DNA of 64,000 nucleotides from an uncultured Candidatus Saccharibacteria bacterium (lineage in GTDB: Bacteria > Patescibacteriota > Minisyncoccia > Phycocordibacterales > UBA2100): the NCBI GenBank assembly GCA_964437185.1, contig CAYTFU010000005.1:2528-66527 (forward strand), written 5' to 3'. The notes below the pieces were generated by a model. It had not been told where the DNA came from. It did no database searches and worked only from the letters and a program-made list of their open reading frames with translations. The position numbers and the translations under genes are program-made. Below are positions 1 to 58,686 of the stretch, piece after piece (within the stretch, counting starts at the first letter, position 1; each line of letters begins with the position of its first letter).

Positions 1-96
1 AAACGTTACGTTTCTCAACTCCTCTATTAAAACAGTGGTACCACTCGCCATATTCGAACGGGGCACGGTTTGCCATTCACTGAATTGTACCCGAAT

Positions 97-2791: not shown

Positions 2792-2831
2792 TTTAGCGTT
2801 CCAACATTTTAATAGCATCATTTATTTTTTT

Positions 2832-4100
2832 ATGAATGACTACGCACACATTCAAAAGCAAGATCCGGATGTTTTTAAAGTATTAGAGGGCGAAGAAACG
2901 CGCGAGGCCGAGGGGCTCGAGCTCATTCCGTCGGAAAATTACGTCTCAAAAGCCGTGCGCGAGGCCAACGGCTCGTGCTTTACCAACAAATATTCCGAAG
3001 GCTACCCGGGCAAGCGATACTACGGCGGCCAGACCTACACCGACGAGGTAGAGACAATTGCGATTGAGCGCGCGAAGAAGCTCTTCAACTGTCAATTCGC
3101 AAACGTGCAAACGCACGCAGGCGCGCCTGCGAACGTCGCAATGTACTTTGCTCTCCTTCAGCCAGGCGACACTGTGCTCGGCATGGATCTCTCGCACGGC
3201 GGCCACCTTACGCACGGACACCCTGTCACGTACCTAACGAAGATTTTCAACTTCGTCCGCTACAAGATGAAGGATCCCAACACGGGAGAAATTGATTACG
3301 ATGAGATGCGCAAAGTCGCTCTCGAACACAAGCCCAAAATCGTCCTCGCAGGTTTTTCCGCATACCCACGCGAGCTCAACTACGCGAAGTTTGTCGAGAT
3401 TGCCCGCGAAGTCGGTGCATACGCAATCATGGACGTCGCCCACATCGCAGGCCTTATCGCTGGCAAGGCGGTGAAAAGCCCGTTTGACTTTGGCTTCGAC
3501 GTGATGACATCGACTACGCACAAAACCCTTCGCGGCCCACGCGGCGGCCTCATCCTCACGCGCGAGAATGAAGAAATCGCGAAGAAAATCGACAAATCCG
3601 TCTTTCCCGGCCTCCAAGGCGGCCCCATCATGAACACCGTCGCAGCCAAAGCTGTGTGCTTCGGCGAAGCGCTCCTGCCATCGTTCCAGACCTACGCATC
3701 GCAAATCCTTAAAAACGCTAAGGCTATGGAAGAAGTCTTTCGCTCCAATAACATCCGCATGCTCACTGGCGGCACGAGCAACCACCTTATCCTCGCCGAC
3801 GTCTTCGGCAGCCTCGGTATGCCCGGCCAAGAAGCCGAGACGCTGCTCGACAAAGCGGGCATCACGCTCAACAAAAACTCGATTGCAGACGACACGCGCA
3901 AACCGATGGATCCTTCCGGCATCCGCTTCGGCACGCCCGCAATCACGACACGCGGATTCAAGGAAGCGGAGTGCAAACGCGTGGCTGAATTGATGGTGGA
4001 CGTCATGAAAAATAAAGACGACGCAAAAAAGCAGTCAGAAATCCGCGAAGAAATCCGCACCCTCTGCCTCAAATTTCCCATCCCCGAGTCGTTTGTGTAA
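2832..4100 (+). CDS. glyA: serine hydroxymethyltransferase
   Basis: 422 aa, SHMT blocks (PSENYVS, YSEGYPGKRYYGG, TTHKTLRGPRGG). Confidence 0.95.
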   Translation: MNDYAHIQKQDPDVFKVLEGEETREAEGLELIPSENYVSKAVREANGSCFTNKYSEGYPGKRYYGGQTYTDEVETIAIERAKKLFNCQFANVQTHAGAPANVAMYFALLQPGDTVLGMDLSHGGHLTHGHPVTYLTKIFNFVRYKMKDPNTGEIDYDEMRKVALEHKPKIVLAGFSAYPRELNYAKFVEIAREVGAYAIMDVAHIAGLIAGKAVKSPFDFGFDVMTSTTHKTLRGPRGGLILTRENEEIAKKIDKSVFPGLQGGPIMNTVAAKAVCFGEALLPSFQTYASQILKNAKAMEEVFRSNNIRMLTGGTSNHLILADVFGSLGMPGQEAETLLDKAGITLNKNSIADDTRKPMDPSGIRFGTPAITTRGFKEAECKRVAELMVDVMKNKDDAKKQSEIREEIRTLCLKFPIPESFV

Positions 4101-4223
4101 AGACGGATGAGGTGACCCTCTCTCGTGTCCGCGACTTGAGAAAAAAGTGTTTGCCAACAGTCGCGCTTAAGGCACTTTCTCATCTATTCGTTTCTGGCAG
4201 CTCTCCGGCGATCTAACGACCTA

Positions 4224-4321
4224 TTGTTTATCTCTGACGGCCGTCAAAGATAAACAATACTTCTCCGCAAGGAGATGAGAGGGCTTTTTAAAAATAACGA
4301 TTTCGTAAATCGTTATTTTTT
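4224..4321. terminator. two adjacent palindromes (17-bp arms 4224..4257; 14-bp arms 4291..4319 with flanking A/T tracts), bidirectional terminator candidate
   Basis: ttgtttatctctgacgg/ccgtcaaagataaacaa and aaaaataacgattt/aaatcgttattttt inverted repeats between convergent genes. Confidence 0.45.
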
Positions 4322-4466: not shown

Positions 4467-4955
4467 CTAGGACGCAGCGCGTGCCGCCGCGGCCCTTAAG
4501 GCCTCGGCGATCGCCGGTCCGCGGGCGTTTATTCGGTTTATCCAATCAACGCCCGCGATTGCGCCGTGGATCGCGGAATAGCCCTCCCAGCCATCGGCAA
4601 GCCGATGGACTGGCGCAGGTTTGTCGAGGAATTTGGCCGCCCTGTCCACGGCCTCCCGGAACTCCGGGAGGTACTCGAGGGCATTTTGCCCCCTCTTGGG
4701 CAGGGAGTCGTCATACTCCCCAAGGTCGACGAGGTCGACCCTCCGAATCGAGAGAGCGGGGTCGTCGGGCACAAAGACCCAACTTCCCCGAAGATACGAG
4801 CGATTTTGCTCGTCGTTAAATTTTTTCGCGCCCGAAATTTCAATCGCCCAGCCAGCTGGCCTGGGCGGGAGTGTTCCGCAGGCGTAGGTCGGCCAAACCT
4901 TGGCCGGCACTCTCGCGATCAAAAGAAATTTTCCCATGTCGTACATGTCAGTCAT
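4467..4955 (-). CDS. hypothetical protein in GC-rich island
   Basis: ORF 4467..4985, start placed at MTDMYDMG; region 4400..5090 visibly GC-richer than flanks; no recognisable motif. Confidence 0.4.
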   Translation of the reverse strand: MTDMYDMGKFLLIARVPAKVWPTYACGTLPPRPAGWAIEISGAKKFNDEQNRSYLRGSWVFVPDDPALSIRRVDLVDLGEYDDSLPKRGQNALEYLPEFREAVDRAAKFLDKPAPVHRLADGWEGYSAIHGAIAGVDWINRINARGPAIAEALRAAAARAAS

Positions 4956-5335
4956 TTCTCTGCCCTCCTTAAGGGCGTCTCGCACAATCCGTGTGCGAAT
5001 TCGGTTGGCCAGTGCTGTGCGCTGGCCGATGAACGTATCCCAGCAAGACCACCTTGATGGGCAATGAGCCCGCCCGAAGGCGGCAATTTAAGGATGCATT
5101 ACCATGCGATCCCTCTTTCCTGCACTAGGCGCACAGCCTACTGCGGGAGAAGAGGAATAACAGCGTGTACCTGAAGTACGCATGATTCCAGTTCTACCTA
5201 TTTATCTGTCAGAGAGCGCATCGGCGAGGCAATTTGGGCACAATGCCGAATGGCTTGTAAGTTTAACATGCTAACATGTGTTTGTCAAGTGAAATATGGC
5301 GAATTGTGGACATTTTTGGGGGTATAATCCTCCAA

Positions 5336-5956: not shown

Positions 5957-5963
5957 GACGCGT

Positions 5964-6779
5964 TTACCCTTTGAAGCCTTGGCGTAAGAGGGCGAGGCCA
6001 CCCCAGAGTCCGCCTTCGTCTTTGAGTGTCGAGTGAACGATCTCAGGTACCGAGGAAAATTTCTTCATAATGCGCTTCACGTGCGTCGCCACGCTCTCGA
6101 CGGGAATTCCTATTTCGTTGAACATAGAACCTCCGAGCACTACGCGGTCGGGCGACCAGTGGAGAATGCTGTTGTGCACACCGACCGCAGTTATTTTGGC
6201 GAGTTCCTCCCACACAGGATCATCTTTTGCGACTTCTTTTGGCGGCTTGCCAAATCTTTTTGAGATCACGGTACCCGAAATCAAATCTTCAAGCGTTTGC
6301 ACGCCATCTGCATCAAGGTATTGCCCTCCCATTTCTGCGCGACCGCGGTCAATCGCCCCGCCGATGATTCGGACGCCGTTTACACCCGTCGAGACTGTCA
6401 TATAGAAAACGACCGGAGCGCCCATGCCCGCACCATACACGGCCTCGCCAAGTCCCACCTGCGCCGTATCGTTTTCAAGAAAGACCCGCGTCGATAGCGC
6501 TTTTTCGATATCACCGGCAAGTTCGTGGCCTACCCATTGCGGAAGGTGTCGCGCCTCGCCAATGGTGCGTTTGTTGTCGGAAAGTGGGCCGGGGACGCCG
6601 ATTGCGATAGCCTCAATCGCACGATTACCGGCCGTCTGCCGCACCGCGTCGCAAAAGCGCGTAATGCCTTCGCGGTAATCTTGCGACGTATCAAATTTGC
6701 TCGGCGCATCGTACTGTTCGAGACTCGCACAACCTGCGATGCGCGTCTTGCTGCCCCCTATGTCGGCGACGATATACAT
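5964..6779 (-). CDS. ROK family sugar kinase (glucokinase-like)
   Basis: IGGSKTRIA N-terminus, ENDTAQVGLGE ROK signature. Confidence 0.8.
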   Translation of the reverse strand: MYIVADIGGSKTRIAGCASLEQYDAPSKFDTSQDYREGITRFCDAVRQTAGNRAIEAIAIGVPGPLSDNKRTIGEARHLPQWVGHELAGDIEKALSTRVFLENDTAQVGLGEAVYGAGMGAPVVFYMTVSTGVNGVRIIGGAIDRGRAEMGGQYLDADGVQTLEDLISGTVISKRFGKPPKEVAKDDPVWEELAKITAVGVHNSILHWSPDRVVLGGSMFNEIGIPVESVATHVKRIMKKFSSVPEIVHSTLKDEGGLWGGLALLRQGFKG

Positions 6780-6782
6780 GAC

Positions 6783-7763
6783 TCACTGCGCAATGCGCTT
6801 CTTAAATTCCGCAACCAACGGCGTCTCAGGATTCGGAACGCCGTAATCATTTGCGAGCGTGAAAGACACCCAATCGGCGAGAATTGCAGAATTGAGCGCT
6901 TTTTCAAATCCCGTTTTCCCCGCAAGCGCAATTTTCTCCACCGGAATCCCGCGCTCACCGAGAATTTCCGCCGCCACCTTCATCCGTTCAACAACGCGCG
7001 GGTGGTCACTAAAATCCTGCAAGAAAAGCGCGTGCATATTGCCCGAAATGGAGCGCGTGGAATCCGCGACATCAAAGCCCGAAAGCTCATTGTGGCAGAG
7101 CTCGGGGAAGACGTTGCAAAATGCGGGAATCTTCGATGTCTCGTTGAACTTTATTTTCCAAATGTAGGAGATCGGCACGTTCGCCGCCGATGAATAAATG
7201 AGGGGTACTTTGCCGCGAAGCGCTGCCGCGAGGCGCTCCCCCTCCGCCTTTCCGACCGTCGGATCGACGCGCTTGCCGGACGCGCGAATCGAATCTTCGA
7301 GCATAGGATTACTCATGAGGCGCGCCATAGCGATCATGGAGTAGCCGACCGCCATGCGCGGCTGAAGGCCCGTCTGCGGAATAAGGATGAGCGGCGCGCG
7401 ATGTTCGCGAGCAAATTCCGCGAGCTTCCCTCCCGTCGTCGCGGCAACGACCGGCAATCTCCGCTCAAGCGCAGTGCGCGCCGCATCGAGCGTTTCCTCC
7501 GTCGTCCCTGAATAAGAACTCAAAATCACGAGCGTATCCCGCGCCTGATCGGGCGCCACATCGGGAAGACTGTAGTCTCGATGAATCTCAATATTTGAAA
7601 CCGCTCCAAAACGCTTGATGAGCCACGCACCCAAGTGCGACCCACCCATTCCTGCAACAATATAATGTTTAAATGGCCGGAGCGTTTCTCCCCTCTCGAC
7701 CTCCGGTACCCAATCAAACTGCGCGCTGAATTTTGCAAGCGTATCTCCAATCATGACCGGCAT
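6783..7763 (-). CDS. bifunctional phosphoglucose/phosphomannose isomerase (SIS domain, archaeal type)
   Basis: GMGGSHLGA and SYSGTTEET SIS motifs, about 325 aa. Confidence 0.75.
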   Translation of the reverse strand: MPVMIGDTLAKFSAQFDWVPEVERGETLRPFKHYIVAGMGGSHLGAWLIKRFGAVSNIEIHRDYSLPDVAPDQARDTLVILSSYSGTTEETLDAARTALERRLPVVAATTGGKLAEFAREHRAPLILIPQTGLQPRMAVGYSMIAMARLMSNPMLEDSIRASGKRVDPTVGKAEGERLAAALRGKVPLIYSSAANVPISYIWKIKFNETSKIPAFCNVFPELCHNELSGFDVADSTRSISGNMHALFLQDFSDHPRVVERMKVAAEILGERGIPVEKIALAGKTGFEKALNSAILADWVSFTLANDYGVPNPETPLVAEFKKRIAQ

Positions 7764-14915: not shown

Positions 14916-14964
14916 TACTTCTTAGACTCCTTGTGCTTCGTGTGCGCTTTGCACCACTAGCAGT
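14916..14964. repeat. 49-bp direct duplicate of the 3' end of rpmG (degenerate, in-frame TAG)
   Basis: near-identical to 15083..15131 (last codons plus stop of rpmG); 3 mismatches. Confidence 0.7.
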
Positions 14965-15081
14965 TCTGGGAAACCCACTCCGCTTGCTGACGGATTCCCA
15001 TACCTTCCTCCACGGGGAACCGGCAGGTTCCCCGACCCCCTCCTTCTGCAAGTGGCTCGCAAAAGGCATTCGTAAACTCTC

Positions 15082-15240
15082 TTACTTCTTAGATTCCTTG
15101 TGCTTCGTGTGCGCTTTGCACCACTTGCAGTACTTTTTTAGTTCCACCTTGCGGGTTACGAGTTTGCGGTTTTTGCGTGACCAGTAGTTGATGCGGGCGC
15201 ACTTGCCACACGCCAATTTGAATAGTTGATCCTGAGACAT
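15082..15240 (-). CDS. rpmG: 50S ribosomal protein L33
   Basis: MSQDQLFKLACGKCARINYWSRKNRK...LKKYCKWCKAHTKHKESKK, zinc-ribbon L33 pattern; start placed inside the 15082..15354 ORF. Confidence 0.8.
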   Translation of the reverse strand: MSQDQLFKLACGKCARINYWSRKNRKLVTRKVELKKYCKWCKAHTKHKESKK

Positions 15241-32422: not shown

Positions 32423-32552
32423 AATGAATTTTACCTAGTGTCGACCAGTATAGCAGAAAGCCTATCCACCGCGAAAACATTGACGGATGAATAGAGAGAG
32501 TAGTTTAGCTGCACGGCGGAACAACTTCCTCCGTCGTAAAAGGAGGGTCGCC

Positions 32553-32600
32553 ATGGCTGAGGGGGCCATTAAGCGACAGTCGAAGAATCACCACAACTGA
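32553..32600 (+). CDS. 15-codon mini-ORF (MAEGAIKRQSKNHHN) with consensus SD, candidate leader peptide
   Basis: AGGAGGG 5 nt upstream of the ATG; followed by a second SD-led mini-ORF and alternative hairpins. Confidence 0.3.
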   Translation: MAEGAIKRQSKNHHN

Positions 32601-32612
32601 AAGGAGGTCACA

Positions 32613-32627
32613 ATGACCTGGACCTAG
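32613..32627 (+). CDS. 4-codon mini-ORF (MTWT) with consensus SD
   Basis: AGGAGG 5 nt upstream of the ATG; Trp codon; embedded in hairpin ggtcacaatgacc. Confidence 0.25.
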   Translation: MTWT

Positions 32628-32668
32628 GTACGATCTTTTCGAGAACAAGTCCCGTTTAATCCGCCCGA

Positions 32669-32720
32669 ACGGGCACTGGGCGGCATCTGTGGGATCCACG
32701 ATGCCGCCTTGAGCTTTTTT
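32669..32720 (+). terminator. Rho-independent terminator
   Basis: ggcggcatc/gatgccgcc 9-bp perfect stem followed by ttgagctttttt; the upstream segment ccgccc (32651..32656) can alternatively pair with gggcgg (32668..32673). Confidence 0.7.
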
Positions 32721-32814
32721 ATATACACAGAAAATCGCAAATCATCATTGACCGCGCGATTCGCCGTTCTAAACTTCTACGAGCTATCTGATCTTTCCAC
32801 AGGTGGCTGATGGT

Positions 32815-32838
32815 GCCGACCTGGGGTCGGCATTTTTT
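32815..32838 (+). terminator. second hairpin plus T-tract terminator
   Basis: gccgacc tgggg tcggc followed by atttttt. Confidence 0.5.
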
Positions 32839-33156
32839 AATTGGAAAGACGGCACCGGAAACCGCAATGGCAAAGAAACAGCCCGAGAAGGAACCTCCTC
32901 GCAAAACCATTTCTCTCTCTACTGGATTTTTTTTCGCGGGCAATGGTGGATTACTTTCGCAATCCATCAAGCGGCGTCCGAAAAAGCCGCCCAAAAAGAA
33001 ATCTTGAGACCGCGCCCGGAAGAGTTGCTAGCCACCGTGCGTAGTGGCGACTCTTCCGGGATTTCGTTTTTTACTCTCCCCCGCATCCCCACTTCACATT
33101 TAAATTCTCCTTGACCAAAAATCACAAAGGACATACGCTCGACTGTGGCAACCTGG

Positions 33157-33168
33157 TCTTTGAATATT
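33157..33168. repeat. 12-bp direct repeat tctttgaatatt, left flank of GC-rich island
   Basis: identical copy at 33818..33829, 661 bp away, at the other edge of the 66% GC segment. Confidence 0.5.
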
Positions 33169-33235
33169 GAAGTCAGGTCGCGGACGTTGGGGGATGTCTC
33201 TCAGCGTTCACTACTCAACCCGCATGGAGGAAAAC

Positions 33236-33724
33236 ATGCGAAAACTTGGATTGGCTACCGTGGCAGGGGCGATGATGCTCGCCTTCGCCATGACGCACGC
33301 GCCCCCTTCGATGGCGCAGTGCATCACCGGCACCAATGCCGGACTTTCCGCGATCAATCCCGGCCCGCCAGTGTTGCCGGAAGCGATCGCGCTGGCTGAC
33401 CAAGCTCCGGTCGGCCAGGCTACCGCGACGGAGTCAACCTTCCTGGGGCAGATTCCGTGGGCGTCCGAAGCCATCGCTCCCCTCGCCGGCAACATGGCGA
33501 AAAGCGCGGTGGTGCCGACTTCCATCACCACCCCGCGCGGTGGCGCGACGGGCCAGGTGATGGTGCGCCTCCCGACAACCACGCAGGCCGATTCGGCTGT
33601 GCATCAACTCGGCGCGGAGGGCTTTATCGGGCCGCCCTCGGCGTTGCAACACGGCGCGGCGATCGTCGGCAACGCGCCGTTCACCAAGATCGCCCTGGTC
33701 GGCCAGATGGCCTATGCTGGCTGA
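33236..33724 (+). CDS. secreted hypothetical protein in 66%-GC island
   Basis: signal peptide MRKLGLATVAGAMMLAFAMTHAPPSMA; GC3-rich codon usage unlike neighbours; start placed at the internal ATG of the 33167..33724 ORF. Confidence 0.5.
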   Translation: MRKLGLATVAGAMMLAFAMTHAPPSMAQCITGTNAGLSAINPGPPVLPEAIALADQAPVGQATATESTFLGQIPWASEAIAPLAGNMAKSAVVPTSITTPRGGATGQVMVRLPTTTQADSAVHQLGAEGFIGPPSALQHGAAIVGNAPFTKIALVGQMAYAG

Positions 33725-33817
33725 TGCAAGTCGCCACCGGTCAGGCACTGATCGCCTGACCAAATAAGGGGGTGCGGCATCGAAAACTATGCTACTCGAT
33801 GTCGCACCTTCCCCCTT

Positions 33818-33829
33818 TCTTTGAATATT
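33818..33829. repeat. 12-bp direct repeat tctttgaatatt, right flank of GC-rich island
   Basis: see 33157..33168. Confidence 0.5.
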
Positions 33830-33989
33830 TTGAGAAATATTTTTCTTGCGCTCACGCAACTCATCATATATAGTATGCGAAGTCCCGATAGGGACTTTAT
33901 TAATTAATAGAGCGTTCGGTAAAGCTTCCTCGCAGACAGTCACGGTAGCGCAACGGTAGCGCAGGCGGGATAGTCCGAACCAAATTACA

Positions 33990-35114
33990 ATGGTAAAAGA
34001 AAAAGAGGAGAAGAAGGTTATTTTAACGGAAGAGAACGAAGTGGAAGTGGCGGCGGTCAAGCAAGGGCCGATGGCGGAGTTGCTTGAGAAATCAGCGACG
34101 CCACCGTCGATGGATGACGTCGTAGAAGGCCCGGTGGTCGCTATCGGCCGCGCGCGAGTTTTCATCGATCTTGCGCCGTTTGGTACGGGAATTATTTATG
34201 GTCGCGAATACCTCTCGGCACGAGAAGCACTCAAAAATGTAAACATCGGCGATACGGTAACCGCGAAGGTCGTCGGATTCGACAATGCAGAAGGGTACAT
34301 CGAAGTCTCGCTGCGCGAAGCACGCCAAGCAGTCATTTGGAATGAGGCTGAGCAGGCGATGCAGAAGAAGACGGTGTTTGAGCTTCCTGTCACCGATGCA
34401 AATAAAGGCGGACTCATCATTACGTGGAACGGCCTTGCAGGATTCCTTCCCGCTTCACAGCTCGCACCAGCGCACTACCCGCGCGTGCCGGACGGAGACA
34501 AAGACAAGATTTTTGTTGAGCTCAAAAAGATGATCGGCACGAAGATCGAGGTCATGGTCATCACCGCAAGCCCGAAAGAGCAGAAGCTTATCTTCAGCGA
34601 GCGTGGCGCAGGTACGACGGAGCGTTCATCACTCGTGGAGAAATATCACATTGGCGATGCGCTCGATGGCGTGGTCACGGGCGCTACGGAATTCGGAGTC
34701 TTCGTGAAGCTCGAAGAAGGACTTGAAGGACTCGTGCACATTTCTGAAATGGATTGGGCTCTCGTCGAGAATCCAAAGACGCGCTATCGCGCAGGTGAGC
34801 ACGTGAAGGTGAAGGTGATCGAGATCAAGGAGGGCAAAATCTCACTTTCGATCAAGGCGCTCATGGATGACCCGTGGAAAGCAGCTGCGGCGAAATACAA
34901 AAAGGATCAGCGTGTCGAGGCAGTTGTCATCAAGTACAACAAGCACGGAGCACTCGCATCGATCGAAGAAGGAGTCGCTGGCCTCGTCCACGTCTCGGAA
35001 TTTGCAAACGAAGAAGATCTTCGCGCGAAGCTCGAGCTCGGCAAGGTGTATCCGTTTACCATCACATTCTTCGAGCCGAAGGATCGTCGGATGACATTGA
35101 AGCCGATCGTATAA
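33990..35114 (+). CDS. rpsA: 30S ribosomal protein S1 (four S1 domains)
   Basis: 374 aa, repeated S1 OB-fold blocks (GxV.G.V..I..FGxFV). Confidence 0.9.
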   Translation: MVKEKEEKKVILTEENEVEVAAVKQGPMAELLEKSATPPSMDDVVEGPVVAIGRARVFIDLAPFGTGIIYGREYLSAREALKNVNIGDTVTAKVVGFDNAEGYIEVSLREARQAVIWNEAEQAMQKKTVFELPVTDANKGGLIITWNGLAGFLPASQLAPAHYPRVPDGDKDKIFVELKKMIGTKIEVMVITASPKEQKLIFSERGAGTTERSSLVEKYHIGDALDGVVTGATEFGVFVKLEEGLEGLVHISEMDWALVENPKTRYRAGEHVKVKVIEIKEGKISLSIKALMDDPWKAAAAKYKKDQRVEAVVIKYNKHGALASIEEGVAGLVHVSEFANEEDLRAKLELGKVYPFTITFFEPKDRRMTLKPIV

Positions 35115-35133
35115 ACGGATCAGAGAAGCAGAA

Positions 35134-35165
35134 AGAGGCCGCCCCCTTGGGGGCGGCCTCTTTTA
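35134..35165 (+). terminator. Rho-independent terminator after rpsA
   Basis: agaggccgccccc/gggggcggcctct 13-bp stem followed by tttt. Confidence 0.7.
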
Positions 35166-35180
35166 ATTGAGGGAGTTGAT

Positions 35181-35194
35181 CTGATTCATCGCGC
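35181..35194. repeat. 14-bp direct repeat ctgattcatcgcgc (degenerate copy of pth 3' end), outer left boundary of cassette
   Basis: identical to 35983..35996, which lies inside the last codons of pth (...RAMNQ); the left copy would encode ...GAMNQ. Confidence 0.65.
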
Positions 35195-35202
35195 CCTCTA
35201 TA

Positions 35203-35242
35203 GTGTTGTTTATAAATTGCTATAGCGTTAAACAAACAACAT
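35203..35242. repeat. hairpin repeat A1 (24-nt core gtgttgtttataaattgctatagc plus imperfect palindromic arms)
   Basis: core identical to 35848..35871; arms tgttgtttat / taaacaaacaaca. Confidence 0.7.
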
Positions 35243-35839
35243 TTAATCGAGAGGCAGTCTGAAATGCCGACGCAGCGGCGCATCAAATTCAATAGCATCT
35301 GCGATGATATAGATAAGCTCTCTACCGATTTTGAGATCGAGCTTTAATAGCGCGACTACCTCCTCACAGTCATACGGAAGAACCCACACGCTATCCTGAA
35401 GCCGAAAAAAACCCATTCTTGAGACGAGTAGTCGAACGCGTTCCCGCAACCCCTTTCTTTTTTCCTCAATATCGAAAATCACGATGCGCCATTTGCGGTC
35501 CCATCGACGAGGCTTTTTGATCTGAGTTTTACCGAGAGAGGCGCGTCGAGCCTCCTGCTCGCCTTTTTGCGTAAGTCGGGGAACATTTCTGCCGTTGAGA
35601 TTTCTGAATTCGATCAGTCCCTTGCGCTTCATTCGAGAGAGGGTCTCCCGCAATCGGCGACGCGGATCTCGCTTACTCATCCAATCGGGATCGCAGTGCT
35701 TCAAAAGCTGGAGCGCATTTGGCGCAGCCATTGCAACAACTGCGATACCCGTCGCCGAGAAGGCGGCAAGTAACATATTTTCTATGTTCACCCGCCTCGT
35801 CCTTTTCTTGGATTCTGATTCCATCCGCCCCACAAGCAC
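35243..35839 (-). CDS. winged-helix-like N-terminal domain fused to a Cas2/VapD-like C-terminal domain (PaaX-like architecture), paralog A
   Basis: 198 aa, GTG start; N-terminal segment NMLLAAFSATGIAVVAMAAPNALQLLKH; C-terminal WRIVIFDIEEKRKGLRERVRLLVSRMGFFRLQDSVWVLPYDCEEV matches the Cas2 core pattern (beta1 hydrophobic-x-x-FD, basic helix, Q-x-SV-F/W); paralog at 57452..58039. Confidence 0.55.
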   Translation of the reverse strand: MLVGRMESESKKRTRRVNIENMLLAAFSATGIAVVAMAAPNALQLLKHCDPDWMSKRDPRRRLRETLSRMKRKGLIEFRNLNGRNVPRLTQKGEQEARRASLGKTQIKKPRRWDRKWRIVIFDIEEKRKGLRERVRLLVSRMGFFRLQDSVWVLPYDCEEVVALLKLDLKIGRELIYIIADAIEFDAPLRRHFRLPLD

Positions 35840-35845
35840 ATCTTA

Positions 35846-35889
35846 ACGTGTTGTTTATAAATTGCTATAGCATGGAATAAACAACACGT
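35846..35889. repeat. hairpin repeat A2, perfect 13-bp-stem palindrome acgtgttgtttat...ataaacaacacgt with 18-nt loop
   Basis: core identical to A1; begins 7 nt upstream of the GTG start of the Cas2-like ORF, so an operator/5'-UTR position. Confidence 0.7.
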
Positions 35890-35973
35890 GAGAAATGGAA
35901 CCGATTATGTGATATGAGAAGGCGGCACTTGGAACGCACTATTGCGAAAGACCGCGTCTCGCCGACTCTGCCT

Positions 35974-36564
35974 TCAATTAAACTGATTCATCGCGCGTTC
36001 GGGGCCTTCGGTCGCAATGATCGCGAGCGCTTTTGAAATTTGTTGGAAAACTTTCTTTAGTTCGATCAGTTCGTTCGCCTTAAACTTTGCGAGAATAAAT
36101 TTTACGACCTCCTGTTCGCCATGAGGTTTATGAATCGCGCCGCCTGCCGTCTTCGGTGAGACGCCGATGCGCACGCGGGTGAACTTTTTGGTCTTCACTG
36201 CACGCATGATTGACTCTACGCCTTTATGTCCGCCGCTTCCGCGATTAAAAGAAAGCTTGATTGTCCCGAATGGCAGGTCGAGATCGTCGTAGAGCACCAC
36301 CATACGCTCGGCCGCCTTCGCACTTTTCACGTACTTCAACACCGCAGAGCCAGATTTGTTCATAAACGTATCGGGAGCGACCAATGTAACGCTCGTTTTT
36401 CCCACAGTACCGCGCGCCACGTGAGCTTTGGACTTCTTATCTTCCCTCCACTCGTCGAATTTTTGCTCATCTGCAAAAAAATCGAGCGCCATGCGGCCGG
36501 CATTGTGCCGTGTCGACTCATATTCCTCACCTGGATTACCGAGACCGACAAATACCCATGCCAT
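35974..36564 (-). CDS. pth: peptidyl-tRNA hydrolase
   Basis: MAWVFVGLGNPGEEYESTRHNAGRMALDFFA N-terminal Pth signature; start placed inside the longer 35974..36687 ORF. Confidence 0.9.
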   Translation of the reverse strand: MAWVFVGLGNPGEEYESTRHNAGRMALDFFADEQKFDEWREDKKSKAHVARGTVGKTSVTLVAPDTFMNKSGSAVLKYVKSAKAAERMVVLYDDLDLPFGTIKLSFNRGSGGHKGVESIMRAVKTKKFTRVRIGVSPKTAGGAIHKPHGEQEVVKFILAKFKANELIELKKVFQQISKALAIIATEGPERAMNQFN

Positions 36565-50715: not shown

Positions 50716-51705
50716 TTAGTGCCGAAAATGGCGGATGCCGGTGAAAACCATGGCAATGCCTGCGGCGTTCGCAGCGCTAATTGAATCCTGATCTTTAAGA
50801 GAACCGCCCGGCTGGATAATCGCCGTAATCCCCTCCTGCGCAGCCACGTCCACGCAATCAGGAAACGGCATAAAAGCATCGGAGGCCATTACGGCGCCTT
50901 CGAGAGAAATTTTCTCGTCGGCCGCCTTAATCGCGGCAAGCCGCGCGGAGTATATGCGGCTCATCTGCCCCGCGCCTATTCCTACTGTCGCGCCATCTTT
51001 TGCATACACGATCGCGTTGGACTTTACGTGTTTGCATACGGTGAATGCAAAGAGTAGGTCAGCGAGTTCTTTTTCTGTTGGCACGCGCGTGGTGACTGTT
51101 TTTACCTCACCGTCAAACACCTTCGCATCGGCGGTCTGTACGAGTACGCCACCCGCGATTGATCGCATGGTCGTACGAGGTTCCGCAGGATCGGGCATTG
51201 ATCCCGTGAGGAGCACGCGCACATTCGGCTTCACCGAAAGAATCGTGAGCGCTTCTTCCTCGGCATCGGGAGCGATGATTACTTCGAGAAATATTTTGAC
51301 AAGCTCGCTCGCAAGATCGGCAGTGATTTTCGAATTGAGCGCGACGATACCGCCAAAGGCAGAGACGGTGTCGCACGCAAACGCTCGCATGTAGGCATCG
51401 TGAATCGTGTCCGCAACCGCCACTCCACACGGGTTCATGTGCTTCACGATCACAGCGGCTGGCTCCTCAAACTCGGCGACGCATTCAAAGGCCGCGTCGG
51501 CGTCCTGCAAATTGTTGAAGCTGAGTTCCTTCCCCTGCACCATGCGCGCAGACGCGACGCCCGGTCGGACGTCGCCTGGATTTCTGTACAAAGCCGCTGC
51601 TTGGTGAGGATTCTCACCGTAGCGAAGCGCGCTTATTTTCTCGAGCCTCAGCGAGAGAGGCGATGGAAGCTGTTCTTGCTCGTGATCCGCTTCGTTCATT
51701 GCCAC
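50716..51705 (-). CDS. purH: AICAR transformylase domain protein (PurH C-terminal domain only, no IMP-cyclohydrolase/MGS domain)
   Basis: [10 protein letters not shown] near the N-terminus corresponds to about residue 220 of bifunctional PurH; GTG start; 329 aa. Confidence 0.8.
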
Positions 51706-52648
51706 ATACTACTACGCCTCAGCTCATTTCTCCATCGCGAAACTACTCTACAACGATCACCTTGCCGTACACGCCGCCCTTCACGTGATTGTGGTACGGC
51801 CATGTACCCACCTTCTCAAACTTCGTAGTATACGTTGCTCCAACTGCACACTGGTCAAATGCAGTGTCAGTCGTGTCGGGACAGTGCTCTTTGAGTGTCG
51901 TACCCGCGTAGCCTTTGTGATCCGGGTGCATCGCGGTCGCTACCCACATATCGGGACCTGTGCTCGTGAAGGTAACGGTACTTCCCTTCTTAACCGTCAC
52001 TTCAGCGGGAGTAAACGCTGCACCATCGTACGAAACTCCACACGGGTTCATGTGCTTCACGATCACAGCGGCTGGCTCCTCAAACTCGGCGACGCATTCA
52101 AAGGCCGCGTCGGCGTCCTGCAAATTGTTGAAGCTGAGTTCCTTCCCCTGCACCATGCGCGCAGACGCGACGCCCGGTCGGACGTCGCCTGGATTTCTGT
52201 ACAAAGCCGCTGCTTGGTGAGGATTCTCACCGTAGCGAAGCGCGCTTATTTTCTCGAGCCTCAGCGAGAGAGGCGATGGAAGCTGTTCTTGCTCGTGATC
52301 CGCTTCGTTCATTGCCACATACTACTACGCCTCAGCTCATTTCTCCATCGCGAAACTACTCTACAACGATCACCTTGCCGTACACGCCGCCCTTCACGTG
52401 ATTGTGGTACGGCCATGTACCCACCTTCTCAAACTTCGTAGTATACGTTGCTCCAACTGCACACTGGTCAAATGCAGTGTCAGTCGTGTCGGGACAGTGC
52501 TCTTTGAGTGTCGTACCCGCGTAGCCTTTGTGATCCGGGTGCATCGCGGTCGCTACCCACATATCGGGACCTGTGCTCGTGAAGGTAACGGTACTTCCCT
52601 TCTTAACCGTCACTTCAGCGGGAGTAAACGCTGCACCATCGTACGAAA
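51423..52648. repeat. perfect tandem duplication, 2 x 613 bp
   Basis: 51423..52035 equals 52036..52648; junction gcaccatcgtacgaaac|tccacacggg. Confidence 0.85.
51743..52318 (-). pseudogene. chimeric ORF created by the duplication: PurH residues 1-95 fused to the C-terminal 96 residues of the cupredoxin-like protein
   Basis: first 95 aa identical to 50716..51705 product, remainder identical to the C-terminus of 52356..52820 product. Confidence 0.6.
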
Positions 52649-56735: not shown

Positions 56736-57332
56736 TTAATTACCCTTGATCTTAGTGGGGAGTTGCTTACGACGGATCACGAGCGTCGCGACGAGCACTC
56801 CATCGAGTACGCCGCACCAGAGAGGGTAGAGGAAGGTCGTGAGAGTGAGCGTTTCGAGCGCAGGAATCACTAAGAACCATCGCACCGAACTCATGGCAAA
56901 TTGCGAGATCGTCTCTTGGTAGGGCCTATTATAAGATTTTCGAAATGTTGGAAGGAATGCGAAGAAATCGGCGAGAATTATAAACAGCACGGCAAGCAAA
57001 GGCTGGTCTGCGCCCTGCCAAAGGACAATCGCCGCAATCGCGAGAAAGAGGCAGATCCAATCGGTAAACGGTATGATTTTTTCTCCCCGCGTGTATGCAA
57101 AAAGTGTTATCCCAAAGCAACACAACGACTCAATACCCGTAACAATTGCCCCTATTCCTCCCCCCTCCGCGAGCTGGATGAAAAAGGTGATGCCCACGAG
57201 CAGCGACCAAATGAGCCACGAGAAAACGTGAGGCTTGGTCGTCCCCTTTACGATGTCGCGATAGTACGGATAGAAACTCGCGAGTCCGATGATGGTGCCA
57301 ATTGTGACGAGCGCAACCTGATAATCGTACAT
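56736..57332 (-). CDS. polytopic membrane protein, paralog family member 2
   Basis: 198 aa; shared N-terminal motif YPYYRDIVKGTTKPHVFSW. Confidence 0.55.
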   Translation of the reverse strand: MYDYQVALVTIGTIIGLASFYPYYRDIVKGTTKPHVFSWLIWSLLVGITFFIQLAEGGGIGAIVTGIESLCCFGITLFAYTRGEKIIPFTDWICLFLAIAAIVLWQGADQPLLAVLFIILADFFAFLPTFRKSYNRPYQETISQFAMSSVRWFLVIPALETLTLTTFLYPLWCGVLDGVLVATLVIRRKQLPTKIKGN

Positions 57333-57387
57333 TGGGAACAGTGTACCTCACGTTCGTTGCAGGAACACATTACGTGAGTAAGCATTG

Positions 57388-57421
57388 TCTTATTATTCTA
57401 CGATCGGAGATTCATAAGATA
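57388..57421. repeat. hairpin-forming repeat B1 (tcttat...ataaga arms)
   Basis: gtcttattattctacgatcggagattcataagatat; direct repeat of 58039..58075. Confidence 0.6.
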
Positions 57422-57451
57422 TATTTAAATTGCCTCGTAACTGGAGAGAGT

Positions 57452-58039
57452 CTATTCCGCACGCGGAGGTAACTTAAAAAGACTCCGGAGCCACCGATCC
57501 CCTTCCACCTCATCCGTGACGATATACAGCACTTCCCTTCCCACAGAAAAGTCGGTCTTAATCATTGAAATGATATCTTCACAATCGTGCGGGAAAATCC
57601 AAACGCTATCTTGCAATTTGATGAATCCAATTTTGATAAGCAGGTGACGTAATCGATCACGTGCCAAACGGCGACGCTCGGTAATATCAAACATGACGAT
57701 TCGCCACTTACCGTCCCACTTTTTTGGTGACTTGTATTTTGCCGATCCGAGCTCAAGACGAAGTAGCAATTGCTCACCGCGTTTAGTGAGCTCTACGCCC
57801 CTTTTGGGGCCAGAACCTACCACACGAATGAGGCCCCTACTTTCCAACCTTCGGCGAGTTGCGGACACACGTGAGGCATAGCGTGATCGGGGACCATCAA
57901 TGTACTTCAATAGCCGCAGTGCATTTGGAGCCACCGCCGCCATAGCCAGAAATCCCACGACTTTAATCGATTCAAGAACTGCGCGTTGAATATTTTGCTT
58001 CCGTGCTCTCTTTTGAACTCTTGCCTCTACCTTACCCAT
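57452..58039 (-). CDS. winged-helix-like N-terminal domain fused to a Cas2/VapD-like C-terminal domain, paralog B
   Basis: 195 aa; N-terminal segment GFLAMAAVAPNALRLLKY; C-terminal WRIVMFDITERRRLARDRLRHLLIKIGFIKLQDSVWIFPHDCEDI; same architecture as 35243..35839. Confidence 0.55.
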   Translation of the reverse strand: MGKVEARVQKRARKQNIQRAVLESIKVVGFLAMAAVAPNALRLLKYIDGPRSRYASRVSATRRRLESRGLIRVVGSGPKRGVELTKRGEQLLLRLELGSAKYKSPKKWDGKWRIVMFDITERRRLARDRLRHLLIKIGFIKLQDSVWIFPHDCEDIISMIKTDFSVGREVLYIVTDEVEGDRWLRSLFKLPPRAE

Positions 58040-58075
58040 TATCTTATTCTACTACGATCGTATAATTATAAGATA
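58039..58075. repeat. hairpin-forming repeat B2 (atcttat...ataagat arms)
   Basis: atcttattctactacgatcgtataattataagatat; immediately upstream of the paralog B start. Confidence 0.6.
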
Positions 58076-58101
58076 TGGGGCTTGTGCAGAAGCTGGCCGA
58101 T

Positions 58102-58686
58102 CTACGTGTTTGAAATTTGCTTGCGGCGGTATACGAGCACGGATACCAATACGATATTGACCGCGATGATGAAACTTGGATAGAGCGTGTTGGTGAGTGT
58201 GAAAGACGCGAATGCGAAAAATCCGACGACGAACTTCGCGATCGAAAGAATGAAGAGGCTCATAGTTTCTTCGTACGGTTTGAGATAGGCCTTGCGCAGC
58301 ATGGGCCCCATCGCGACCATGTGCGTGGCAGTGACGATGAGTACCGCGTGCAAGGGATCGCTCGTCGCGCGCCAGAGCACGATTCCCATGAGCGCAGCGA
58401 CCAAGCAGATCCAATCAAAAAGCACGACCTCGACCCGTCCGTGAATCATCGCAAAAATCGCAATCGCAAGCACCGCCGCCGCGCTCACGCCCGTCACCCA
58501 TGCACCTGCCCCAGCGCCCGTCACGACTTGTGCGGCAAACGTAATTCCCATAAGAATTGCGAAGGCAACCCACGACACGGGGTGCGGCTTAGTCGTTCCC
58601 TTCAAGATATCTCGAATGTACGGCACATAGCTTACAAGCGCGATCACGACCGCGAGTGCACCTGCTACCGCCTGAATATTTCCCAT
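58102..58686 (-). CDS. polytopic membrane protein, paralog family member 3
   Basis: 194 aa; shared N-terminal motif YVPYIRDILKGTTKPHPVSW and C-terminal RRKQ. Confidence 0.55.
   Translation of the reverse strand: MGNIQAVAGALAVVIALVSYVPYIRDILKGTTKPHPVSWVAFAILMGITFAAQVVTGAGAGAWVTGVSAAAVLAIAIFAMIHGRVEVVLFDWICLVAALMGIVLWRATSDPLHAVLIVTATHMVAMGPMLRKAYLKPYEETMSLFILSIAKFVVGFFAFASFTLTNTLYPSFIIAVNIVLVSVLVYRRKQISNT

Follow-up and report, generated by a model that had tools for sequence, protein, structure and literature searches.

A short PaaX-family gene between matched palindromes, inserted at the 3' end of pth in a Patescibacteria genome

The minus-strand gene at 35243..35833 of the window, the 64-kb stretch of DNA analysed here, codes for a short protein of the PaaX repressor family that lacks the C-terminal effector domain. 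It lies between two copies of one palindrome, and comparison with relatives supports the view that the ~800-bp unit is a real insertion at the 3' end of pth. Among 85 Patescibacteria loci, 67 have the gene placed in this way between two copies of one ~40-bp tripartite palindrome. Taken together, the results suggest that the unit is probably an autoregulated PaaX-type DNA-binding module, spread laterally by host recombination and not by integrase-mediated site-specific integration. As far as could be found, there is no prior description of this self-bracketed design, which is present at dozens of the sampled Patescibacteria loci (of at least 528). The features of the pth locus are as follows.

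35132..35163: perfect 15+15 GC-rich hairpin, an inverted repeat also found by a terminator scan
35163..35196, minus strand: displaced (pseudo) pth 3' terminus, reading GAMNQINSLN-stop, with the left repeat copy at 35181-35194
35203..35241: palD, the downstream palindrome and predicted second operator copy, centre GCTATAGC at 35219-35226
35243..35833, minus strand: short PaaX-family gene (predicted wHTH plus Cas2-like PaaX_M, without PaaX_C; PF20803 and PDB 8a39 matches)
35840..35845, minus strand: putative -10 hexamer TAAGAT, read from the sequence
35846..35889: palU, the upstream palindrome and predicted operator, arms 35846-35858 and 35877-35889, centre GCTATAGC at 35864-35871
35890..35973, minus strand: 84-nt spacer from the regenerated pth stop codon to palU, an inserted segment absent in the L009 and L011 empty sites
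35974..36564, minus strand: pth, peptidyl-tRNA hydrolase (Pfam PF01195, E=1e-54)

An earlier note on this DNA had described a 198-aa minus-strand ORF at 35243..35839 opening with GTG. That ORF is present in the sequence; however, the GTG at 35833 (196 aa, MGRMES...) is the likelier start, since homologues open with MG-x-x-E. Gene callers take the ATG at 35824 (193 aa). The product matches Pfam PF20803 (PaaX_M) over residues 111-186 (E=1.7e-16; 60.5 bits, where 24 are required). This domain, named 'PaaX protein central Cas2-like domain' in Pfam, was present in every listed homologue. A profile search matched E. coli PaaX (PDB 8a39) over the recognition helix, the wing and the Cas2-like domain, and 8a39 was also the best Foldseek match (probability 1.0), with Cas2 structures next (probability up to 0.99, TM about 0.55-0.6 on the target) and a weak match to VapD 6zi1 (E=0.2). 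In the AF2 model, residues 54-96 form a helix, a beta-hairpin and a helix, and residues 1-50 are of low confidence (pLDDT <50). The Pfam, profile, AF2 and Foldseek evidence thus supports the proposed division into a wHTH N-terminal half and a Cas2-like C-terminal half, and the Foldseek and profile checks returned no non-Cas2 fold for the latter. The suggestion that this architecture could not be placed in a described system did not hold, as it appears to be that of the PaaX N-terminal region followed by PaaX_M, with 8a39 as the top structure. Indeed, some homologues already carry the name 'Transcriptional regulator, PaaX family'.

The protein scores 40 bits with TIGR02277, for which the cut-off for true PaaX orthologues is 264.55 bits. 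No match was obtained at E<=1 with the Pfam PaaX N-terminal model, nor was there one with PaaX_C (PF08223), and the protein stops ~12 residues past its PaaX_M match. Length is uniform in the family, at ~185-200 aa. With the cas2 model TIGR01573 the scores were 26.3 and 28.0 bits (cut-off 24.5 bits), over only ~40 residues, and with Pfam Cas2 (PF09827) 16.4 bits, under its 23.8-bit cut-off.

PaaX is the phenylacetyl-CoA-responsive repressor of paa operons in E. coli and Pseudomonas (Pfam PF07848, PF20803 and PF08223), in which the Cas2-like domain mediates dimerisation. The short protein shares with it a predicted winged helix followed by a Cas2-like central domain, and the best sequence and fold matches available are to PaaX. 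However, PaaX has 316 aa and includes the PaaX_C effector domain for aryl-CoA sensing, whereas the short form has ~195 aa and lacks PaaX_C. Unlike PaaX, the short family is multi-copy, occurs in Patescibacteria and forms cassettes without paa gene association. The likeness to Cas2 and VapD lies in the ferredoxin-like fold, the N-terminal strand ending in (F/Y)-D-I and the Q-x-S-V-(F/W) motif, but here a DNA-binding domain is joined to the Cas2-like one and, as had been noted, a CRISPR array is missing, since the 64-kb window has no array-like repeats. The Cas2 signature F-D-I...Q-x-S-V-W, with the Asp of Cas2 (D118) and a Q-x-S-x-W motif, is retained in the short form, whereas E. coli PaaX lacks both and reads L-S-E...A-P-S-L-M there. 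Because this signature is kept here and lost in PaaX, the short form may sit between PaaX and Cas2 with a Cas2-like activity retained. Across the family the wHTH half is variable and follows the arm type, and the Cas2-like half is almost invariant, with its acidic and polar residues, the Cas2 catalytic Asp included, unchanged. Such conservation, far beyond what dimerisation would demand, hints at another activity.

Two hairpins with a common 24-nt core had been reported on either side of the gene, and both are confirmed as non-random. The core, GTGTTGTTTATAAATTGCTATAGC, has exactly two occurrences in the 64 kb, at 35203 and 35848, where shuffles expect none, and the repeat shared by palU and palD reaches 39 nt at 90% identity. 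As the earlier note had also claimed, the upstream copy is a perfect palindrome with a 13-bp stem (13+13, 35846-35889, ACGTGTTGTTTAT...ATAAACAACACGT). Its end lies 6, 12 and 21 nt from GTG 35839, GTG 35833 and ATG 35824, respectively. palD begins 2 nt past the PaaX-like stop codon, and a place just past the stop is family-wide. The arms and centre of palU are kept in the orthologous cassettes L001, L002, L095 and L096, with differing spacers, and in the 64-kb window each arm pair is found only beside its own gene. The hexamer TAAGAT adjoins palU 6 nt ahead of GTG 35833; as a putative -10 box, it would therefore imply a leaderless mRNA. In four orthologues of the cassette a TAnnnT hexamer precedes the start, as TAAAAT or TAGAAT at 6 nt and, in L096, as TATAAT at 9 nt. 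A promoter consensus scan of the pth locus was uninformative.

The operator of E. coli PaaX is TGATTC(N27)GAATCA, and PaaX represses its own promoter too (PMC9493321). No structure of a PaaX-DNA complex had been reported as of the 2022 review (PMC9493321). The predicted site described here is similar in that inverted short arms stand ~27 bp apart, for a total of ~39-40 bp (TGTTGT-N26-ACAACA). It differs in its conserved central hexamer and in that two such sites bracket the gene itself.

The family comprises at least 528 loci among species representatives in Patescibacteria and 473 clusters at E<=1e-30. Where the upstream (U) and downstream (D) palindromes match, in 67 loci, locus-specific arms surround a CTATAG or CGRYCG centre. 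The two copies agree best in the arms (positions +-11..19, 85-92% identity) and the centre (82-95%); agreement falls to 53-77% in the spacers and to ~31% past +-20. The centre class is equal in U and D in 59 of these loci, and the two main classes never occur together in one locus. Altogether, 612.7 kb held 130 family-type palindromes against 0 in shuffles, and 120 of them lay within 160 nt of a PaaX_M gene end. The proposal that the hairpins are cognate to the gene is therefore borne out family-wide. Hexamers resembling a -10 box are commoner in the right half of U (29/67) than of D (12/67), and inspection by eye of the sequences listed for one class of 20 loci placed TAnnnT in the right spacer. 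The U-to-D spacing gave no helical phasing. A role for palD as promoter or operator of the downstream gene was rejected, as in 36 of 54 loci that gene converges on the cassette, and its distance is not fixed. Extra flanking-paralogue matches in L028, L055 and L062 were artefacts, namely the palindromes themselves translated.

The same protein family had been noted a second time in the window with its own repeats, and a paralogue with its own flanking palindromes was indeed found. Additionally, the window holds a palindrome of the family type that stands alone.

4219..4260: solo family-type palindrome, TATTGTTTATCTCTGACGG and CCGTCAAAGATAAACAATA, no PaaX_M gene nearby
57386..57423: paralogue palD, arms and centre as in its palU
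57452..58039, minus strand: second short PaaX-like gene, a 195-aa paralogue with 40% identity to the first copy
58040..58076: paralogue palU, arms TATCTTAT and ATAAGATA, centre CGATCG

At the paralogue the start codon adjoins the palU arm, and TAGAAT stands 6 nt ahead of the ATG. The solo palindrome occupies the gap between convergent ORFs, 2832..4100 on the plus strand, which from its sequence is presumably SHMT (glyA), and 4467..4985 on the minus strand (172 aa). In all, three solo palindromes occur away from any PaaX_M gene; they lie in gaps between convergent genes, one of them in a genome with an empty pth-rpsA site. Genomes hold several divergent paralogues, and presence is patchy among close relatives. 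No two cassettes with the same arms were found in one genome of the sample.

The earlier note had placed the insertion at the 3' end of pth with a regenerated terminus, on the evidence of a 14-bp direct repeat around a unit of about 800 bp. The repeat, CTGATTCATCGCGC, occurs only at 35181 and 35983 and bounds 802 bp. With one mismatch allowed, shuffled sequences still averaged only 0.05 matches and none of 100 reached 2; the repeat extends to 19 nt at 89% identity. As described, the right copy (35983-35996) encodes the end of pth (...ERAMNQFN-stop), whose final 23 nt comprise this copy and the regenerated tail TTTAATTGA, and the left copy belongs to the second pth terminus on the minus strand. 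The relatives L009, L011 and L012 have empty sites, with pth directly against rpsA and no cassette, which bears out an insertion. In L009, pth ends with GCGCGATGAATCAATTCAACTGA followed by the terminator, and thus resembles the left pseudo-terminus of the window. L009 also has an equivalent hairpin at the same place as that at 35132..35163, which we predict to be the bidirectional terminator of rpsA and ancestrally that of pth as well. No relative has the identical pseudo-terminus without the cassette, which argues against a simple local duplication. A search of JGI metagenome contigs for the empty-site junction CGCGCGATGAATCAGATCAAC gave a single match, in an unrelated 514-aa gene, and this was rejected as chance.

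Duplicated gene-end scars were found in at least six loci including the pth locus, each in a different gene and with no common core. Flanking repeats vary in length and were seen in ~6 of ~73 loci (5/72 scanned plus L096). The scar in L075 lies in obg, with 27 nt exact plus a diverged extension, and duplicated gene ends also flank the cassettes of L081, L033, L021 and L096. The last is a sister cassette at the same pth-rpsA intergenic site, with its scar, a relic of rpsA, in that gene instead of pth. Similar islets at gene 3' ends, formed by integrases or by homology-facilitated illegitimate recombination, also have diverged duplicates of a neighbour's 3' end on both sides of the insert and leave that gene intact; they differ from the present unit, which has no integrase and no common core and is only ~0.8 kb. 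Recombination with the DNA of relatives whose cassette already occupies that locus would be consistent with the scars. No signal of a recombination breakpoint was found in pth by sliding-window identity against four relatives, the divergence of ~25-29% being too high for breakpoints to be mapped. Integron cassettes differ in having a single 3' attC, as opposed to matched palindromes at both gene ends, and in forming arrays, which were not seen here; no intI was seen among called or scanned genes near the sampled loci.

We propose the following mechanism. A dimer would bind each 40-bp palindrome, with its two variable winged helices, centred ~30 bp apart, on the locus-specific outer arms and its conserved Cas2-like core over the conserved central hexamer, CTATAG or CGRYCG. 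Because the upstream site overlaps the gene's own promoter, with the putative -10 box adjoining and a leaderless mRNA, the PaaX-like protein would repress itself. The downstream site, which is often more symmetric than the upstream one, would most likely strengthen repression by looping and/or block transcription over the 3' boundary, and either role would make the unit a self-contained, insulated expression module. As accessory DNA, the cassette would have reached the pth-rpsA junction on DNA from a relative already carrying it beside pth. Host recombination, through one-sided homology and an illegitimate joint or through a single crossover of a circle, would then have given pth its new tail from the incoming DNA and displaced the old one. 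This route we infer from the scars only. Against the autoregulator reading, the visible targets stand only beside the protein's own gene, with no obvious benefit to the cell. The low model confidence for the first 50 residues, where the Pfam N-terminal model gave no match, the strong conservation of the Cas2-like half, the lack of helical phasing and the three solo palindromes also speak against it.

Alternatively, the layout could be that of a small mobile element able to move autonomously, with the wHTH-Cas2-like protein as a site-specific nuclease or recombinase acting at the central hexamers (attL and attR); this protein would excise a ~0.65-kb circle of the gene and one palindrome, re-insert it at solo palindromes and regulate itself through the upstream end. 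As in an insertion sequence with an autoregulated transposase and a promoter in its left terminal repeat, a small gene is bounded by two presumed sites of its product, the upstream copy overlaps the promoter, and a unit of ~0.65-0.8 kb recurs in varied contexts. The sites are recombinase-like, with two inverted arms around a short core that has an R-Y centre, and homology between cassettes in unrelated contexts ends at the palindromes, so that only the palU-to-palD block is held in common. The solo palindromes in convergent-gene gaps, the one in the genome with the empty pth-rpsA site among them, point the same way, as do the invariant acidic and polar residues with the Cas2 catalytic Asp and the TIGR01573 score above cut-off. 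Nevertheless, we consider this explanation unlikely. There is no sign of recent transposition, because same-arm pairs are lacking and paralogues within a genome are ~40% identical. Furthermore, the insert at pth runs 84+9 nt past palU and 8 nt past palD, and therefore the palindromes are not the junctions, and the scars are duplicated ends of neighbouring genes, which indicates host recombination. Insertion sequences and MITEs also differ from the cassette, which has no known transposase fold, no fixed-length target-site duplication and no identical copies per genome, and each end of which is itself palindromic, the ends not being mutually inverted as in an insertion sequence. In addition, the catalytic subunit of characterised Cas1-Cas2 integrases is not known to be Cas2. 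That the palindrome-gene-palindrome unit is a new kind of minimal mobile element, its protein cutting or exchanging strands at CTATAG/CGRYCG and the solo palindromes being empty or vacated attachment sites, seems rather improbable.

A single-protein addiction or toxin-like module would have the Cas2/VapD-like half as a nuclease toxin and the wHTH half as its own repressor at the two operators, and would persist and spread as a selfish unit or through a defence-related role. We judge it a distinctly unlikely explanation. Divergent paralogues in one genome, patchy presence and location at gene ends resemble the behaviour of TA systems, and the proposed palindromic autoregulation, the Foldseek similarity to Cas2 and VapD and the retained catalytic-type Asp are all consistent with it. 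However, there is no partner gene, and neither a VapX-like partner nor a conserved small antitoxin gene was found across the contexts examined. The neighbours are unrelated housekeeping genes; those within +-3 kb of the cassette are pth, an S26 peptidase, an HGTP_anticodon protein and rpsA, with no adjacent cas1. Defence-system models in PADLOC gave weak Cas2 matches only, and the family is almost absent from mobile DNA collections, with no match in those of phage, only remote PaaX matches in plasmids and one weak partial locus in IMG/VR.

Integration by an integrase acting from elsewhere, with the 14-bp core in the 3' end of pth (attB) recombining with the same core in the element (attP), is a version of the site-specific integration that the earlier note had put forward, and we regard it as very unlikely. 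It would account for the exact 14-nt direct repeat around the 802-bp unit, the regenerated pth end with the old one displaced, and the empty sites in relatives. In opposition to this, no integrase was found in the unit, which holds one gene only and has housekeeping genes as neighbours, and the same cassette lineage has a different scar, in rpsA, in L096. The scars elsewhere, in obg, rpsA and unnamed genes (GCGCGATGAATCAG, AAAAGATACTCAATAAGATTAAGGACG, CTTCCCGTTTAGGAAATA, TCTCCGTCCGTTTCAAA and CGCAAGCGCTCGTC), have no common core. Additionally, GCGCGATGAA is conserved in pth of two (L009 and L011) of four relatives under comparison, so that orthology alone can account for part of the 14-nt match.

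Lastly, it is most improbable that the palindromes act mainly as RNA hairpins, a structure in the 5' UTR and a 3' terminator or stabiliser, and not as protein-binding DNA sites. In favour, palU folds strongly as RNA (-19.4 kcal/mol, z = -7.2), and among the arm mismatches of D, G-T somewhat outnumbers A-C (19 vs 7). In opposition, the inferred -10 box lies at or past the right arm of palU, so that most of palU would be untranscribed, mismatches in the U arms have no G-U excess (16 vs 15), and several D copies fold weakly (z = -0.4 for that of paralogue 2). Moreover, hexamer and arms keep their sequence, and not merely their pairing, both from U to D and across orthologues, and nothing would explain why a terminator copies the promoter-side sequence. 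The lack of G-U excess in U and the weak folding of some D copies argue, from sequence comparison, for DNA sites rather than RNA helices. Rfam gave nothing in L001 and L002, only tRNAs in the window, and only a sub-threshold FinP-like match in the L009 gap.

The genomes of Patescibacteria (CPR) are very small, and few regulators can be recognised in them. In the literature consulted, no paper connects PaaX with Cas2 or with Patescibacteria. The results identify a large family in these bacteria with a built-in, readable pair of putative cognate DNA sites. They also bear on gene flow in uncultivated bacteria, where small accessory cassettes appear to come and go beside housekeeping gene ends, leaving displaced termini behind. 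Should the protein prove an autoregulator and no more, it would extend a known family neatly but modestly; were the mobile-element explanation true, the Cas2 fold would have a role in DNA transactions outside CRISPR, and the family would be a candidate relative of the common ancestor of Cas2 and PaaX.

The ~70 matched protein-site pairs provide a natural data set for decoding how PaaX-type winged helices read DNA. The rank correlation between arms and recognition helices is weak (rho 0.17) because registers shift, and only a qualitative grouping is usable. No protein column was a clean determinant of the centre class. At position 144 the CTATAG class has D throughout and the other class is mixed, a pattern that may reflect phylogeny alone.

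The short PaaX-like gene at the 3' end of pth probably encodes a PaaX-family autorepressor whose own gene is bracketed by two predicted cognate PaaX-type operators. We favor, with fair though not strong confidence, a reading in which the unit is a compact accessory module: host recombination would spread it among related Patescibacteria, with displaced gene termini left as traces. Everything the earlier note described at this locus is in the sequence, and its interpretation stood in part: a winged helix is indeed fused to a Cas2-like domain, but site-specific integration was not supported. New here are the pair of predicted operators around the protein's own gene, the retention of the Cas2 signature and the recurrence of gene-end scars; a literature search did not find them described. 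The features discussed are the following.

4219-4260: solo palindrome, 42 nt
35132-35163: GC-rich hairpin, which also terminates rpsA
35203..35241: palD, downstream palindrome of cassette 1
35243..35833, minus strand: short PaaX-like gene of cassette 1
35846..35889: palU, upstream palindrome of cassette 1
56736-57332 and 58102-58686: tandem membrane-protein genes
57452..58039, minus strand: second short PaaX-like gene (paralogue 2)

The minus-strand ORF claimed for cassette 1 (35243..35839) is present, and its likeliest start codon is GTG 35833, giving 196 aa, since the homologues share the N-terminus MG-x-x-E; gene callers chose ATG 35824. The protein matches Pfam PF20803, 'PaaX protein central Cas2-like domain' (E=1.7e-16), and a profile of 20 family members matched the E. 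coli PaaX crystal structure 8a39 over the recognition helix, the wing and the Cas2-like domain. A structure search with an AlphaFold model (pLDDT 75.8, N-terminal 50 residues poorly predicted) returned 8a39 first, followed by Cas2 structures and the PaaX-like structures 3kfw and 3l09. The fusion is thus already known as the PaaX N-terminal plus middle architecture, and some homologues carry the label 'Transcriptional regulator, PaaX family'. The cassette 1 protein is not an orthologue of PaaX. Its score against TIGR02277 is 40 bits, for a cut-off of 264.55 bits, and, unlike PaaX, it has no PaaX_C domain and is only about 195 aa long. It also retains the Cas2 signature, W-R-x-V-I-F-D-I...L-Q-D-S-V-W; the corresponding residues of E. 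coli PaaX are L-L-L-L-S-E...L-A-P-S-L-M. It passes the cut-off of the Cas2 model TIGR01573 just, across about 40 residues.

The family comprises 473 clusters (50% identity) at E<=1e-30, every one with a length of about 185-200 aa, and at least 528 loci in GTDB species representatives. Among the 80 loci listed from these, nearly all carry a Patescibacteria/CPR label, and several genomes hold multiple copies. In 67 diverse members compared, variation falls in the winged-helix half, and the Cas2-like half is almost invariant, with conservation of W108, D109, W112, R113, F117, D118, E121, R127, G138, F139, Q143, S145, W147, P150, C153, E154, Y172, E179 and D181.

The 24-nt core attributed to the two hairpins is exact at 35203 and 35848, with no other copy in the 64 kb and none expected from shuffles; at 90% identity the repeated sequence is 39 nt long, and the upstream hairpin has the perfect 13+13 stem claimed for it. 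In two syntenic relatives (L001 and L002, cassette proteins 79% and 77% identical) the gene is flanked on both sides by the cassette 1 element GTGTTGTTT-N7-GCTATAGC-N7-AAACAACAC, one copy lying upstream and the other beginning directly after the stop codon. Arms and center are kept in these elements and spacers vary, as they do in the related loci L095 and L096 (GCA_009712145.1). Paralogue 2 has a different palindrome, TATCTTAT...CGATCG...ATAAGATA, also on both sides of the gene. A script scan found matched upstream (U) and downstream (D) palindromes in 67 of 85 loci, with identity concentrated in arms and center.

Identity between U and D copies by position
Arms, +-11..19 from center: 85-92%
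Center, +-1..4: 82-95%
Spacers: 53-77%
Beyond +-20: ~31% (background)

The central hexamer is CGRYCG in 36 and CTATAG in 23 of these 67 loci, and the main classes are never mixed in one locus. When sites were defined structurally, by a central hexamer and complementarity at 8 or 9 of the 9 arm positions, 130 were found in 612.7 kb and none in shuffles; 120 of the 130 had the end of a PaaX_M gene no more than 160 nt away. Within the window, either arm pair occurs only beside its own gene. Furthermore, arm type tracks recognition-helix family; for example, TTGTTTA arms accompany DP(K/R)QRL(R/H)ETxSRLKRKG, and TTTACCTAA arms accompany KNLKYSINDSF. Co-inheritance alone would also be expected to give such a match.

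We read the flanking palindromes as predicted operators of the short PaaX-like protein. The published PaaX site is TGATTC(N27)GAATCA (PMC9493321), and the cassette 1 site, TGTTGT-N26-ACAACA, agrees with it in span and symmetry. In the cassette 1 lineage a TAnnnT hexamer (TAAGAT in the window, TAAAAT in L001, TAGAAT in L002 and L095, TATAAT in L096) abuts the right arm of palU, 6 nt before the start codon, or 9 nt in L096. In 20 other loci the hexamer lies inside the right spacer, with the ATG at the end of the right arm; paralogue 2, one of them, reads TAGAAT-AAGATA-ATG. Both layouts imply leaderless transcripts and a promoter covered by the site. The right half of U contains a -10-like hexamer more often than that of D (29/67 vs 12/67).

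By analogy, the cassette might instead resemble an insertion sequence with an autoregulated transposase, in keeping with the extreme conservation of the Cas2-like half, a palindromic site built like that of a recombinase and the placement of the gene between two copies of its own site. However, no genome holds two cassettes of one specificity, paralogues within a genome are only about 40% identical, and the insertion junctions at pth fall outside the palindromes. A role of the palindromes as RNA hairpins is not favored, as U arms have no G-U excess (16 vs 15) and some D copies fold poorly; D arms have a weak G-U excess (19 vs 7). Some D copies are perfect 48-nt palindromes, with overall symmetry not above that of U. 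D as a promoter of the neighbor was ruled out, the downstream neighbor being convergent in 36 of 54 loci and at no fixed distance. Under the operator reading, D may therefore be an auxiliary operator, acting through looping, as a 3'-boundary roadblock, or both. No helical phasing was found in the U-D spacing (588-752 bp).

The 14-nt direct repeat CTGATTCATCGCGC that bounds the unit has exactly two copies, at 35181 and 35983. In minus-strand translation the one on the right gives the true pth terminus, ...ERAMNQFN*, and the one on the left the degenerate terminus proposed earlier, GAMNQINSLN*, running straight into the GC-rich hairpin. In L009 (GCA_964424265.1), L011 and L012, equally distant relatives whose pth is 76% identical, pth is convergent on rpsA with nothing between.

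Sequences at the 3' end of pth
L009 (empty site): CGCGCGATGAATCAATTCAACTGA, terminator, rpsA
Window, left copy: GGCGCGATGAATCAGATCAACTCC...TAA, terminator, rpsA
Window, true pth tail: ...TTTAATTGA
L011 and L001 tails: TTTAATTGA / TTTAATTAA

This comparison identifies the left copy as the displaced original pth terminus. The 802-bp segment would have brought a replacement pth tail, an 84-nt spacer, palU, the gene and palD. No palindrome is present at the three empty sites, which favors gain in the lineage of the window over deletion from palindrome to palindrome elsewhere. The cassette is on all contigs of the window's own population, and a metagenome search for the empty-junction allele gave a chance match only. 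An empty junction would read ...CCCGAACGCGCGATGAATCAG joined to ATCAACTCC..., and a circle junction, if formed, ...AACAACACTATAGAGG joined to GCGCGATGAATCAGTTTAATTGA....

Direct repeats outside the palindrome pair were scanned for in 72 loci, with shuffle maxima of 8-13 nt. Exact repeats of at least 14 nt were found in five: L075 (27 nt), L081 (18 nt), L033 (17 nt), the cassette 1 locus (14 nt) and L021 (14 nt). All five are the 3' end of the adjoining gene, obg in L075. In L075, L021 and L033 similarity goes on past the exact repeat in diverged form, protein-conserving in L075 and L021, the pattern expected for copies from two different genomes. In L096 a cassette of the cassette 1 lineage occupies the same intergenic site with its scar in rpsA: a relic of the junction between the pth and rpsA ends precedes palU, and the real end of rpsA is on the downstream side. 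Integrase-mediated attB x attP integration does not fit these scars, whose repeats share no common core; no integrase is present. The scars would fit homology-facilitated illegitimate recombination, and would also fit a single crossover of a circular fragment from a relative in which the cassette already lay next to that gene.

Cassettes from different genomes are homologous in nucleotide sequence from the outer edge of palU to that of palD, including in unrelated contexts (between a solute-binding-protein gene and gyrA in L064; beside a sugar transferase gene in L085 and L086). The L067 cassette and paralogue 2 lie between full-length tandem paralogues, 65% and 41% identical respectively; those of paralogue 2 are the two membrane-protein genes, the first of which (56736-57332) had no Pfam match.

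Three solo palindromes were found.

Window 4219-4260: tripartite, PaaX_M-cassette type, arms TATTGTTTATC, center CGGCCG; between convergent ORF ends, 2832..4100 (plus strand) and 4467..4985 (minus strand)
L068 270-311: arms those of a cassette 2.7 kb away; between convergent genes
L009 6413-6455: arms and center as in cassette 1; 650 nt upstream of rpsA

The window copy has no PaaX_M gene nearby; ORF 2832..4100 reads from its sequence as SHMT/glyA, and the 172-aa ORF 4467..4985 had no Pfam match. The L009 genome has its solo palindrome and an empty pth/rpsA site. Solo palindromes might mark sites that a cassette has left, sites for attachment or additional targets. At the contig edge of L096 (1-40) is a second family-type palindrome of different specificity, ACATAATAAGGGTACGGTCGTACTCTTATTATGT. 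It lies upstream of the cassette-1-type unit, at a distance of about 750 nt, and both fall in what used to be the pth/rpsA interval, which suggests that two different cassettes may be stacked at one site.

Upstream of rpsA, the L009 solo palindrome lies in a gap without genes (5766-6895, about 1.1 kb), flanked by two similar units about 450-515 nt apart, each starting AAAGTyTGGGTGTGTATAAAAAT and ending CGCCACGCTACTCTCTCT.CTCATTCGTCA; Rfam gave no significant match to the gap. A comparable region of the window, 32500-33990, a stretch of about 1.4 kb lying upstream of rpsA, holds only overlapping ORFs on both strands and had no Rfam match. Between cassette and rpsA, L001 (~6630-6900), L002 (~2745-3020) and L095 (~1490-1745) share a conserved non-coding block of about 270 nt, absent from the window, with a hairpin after palD and, on the opposite strand, a short conserved ORF, M(K/R)(Q)MFSMFAI; the L001 and L002 blocks had no Rfam match at the gathering threshold.

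Elsewhere in the window, at 51422-52647, a 613-bp segment is present twice in tandem with 100% identity (51422-52034 and 52035-52647). The duplication covers a 3' portion of a cupredoxin-like gene and a 5' portion of a purH-like gene (named from translations) and creates a chimeric ORF, 51743..52318 on the minus strand; it either arose very recently or is an artefact of assembly. Adjoining tRNA-Trp, a 52-nt direct repeat (14916-15134, 94% identical, 167 nt apart) looks by eye like two tandem L33 (rpmG)-like gene ends.
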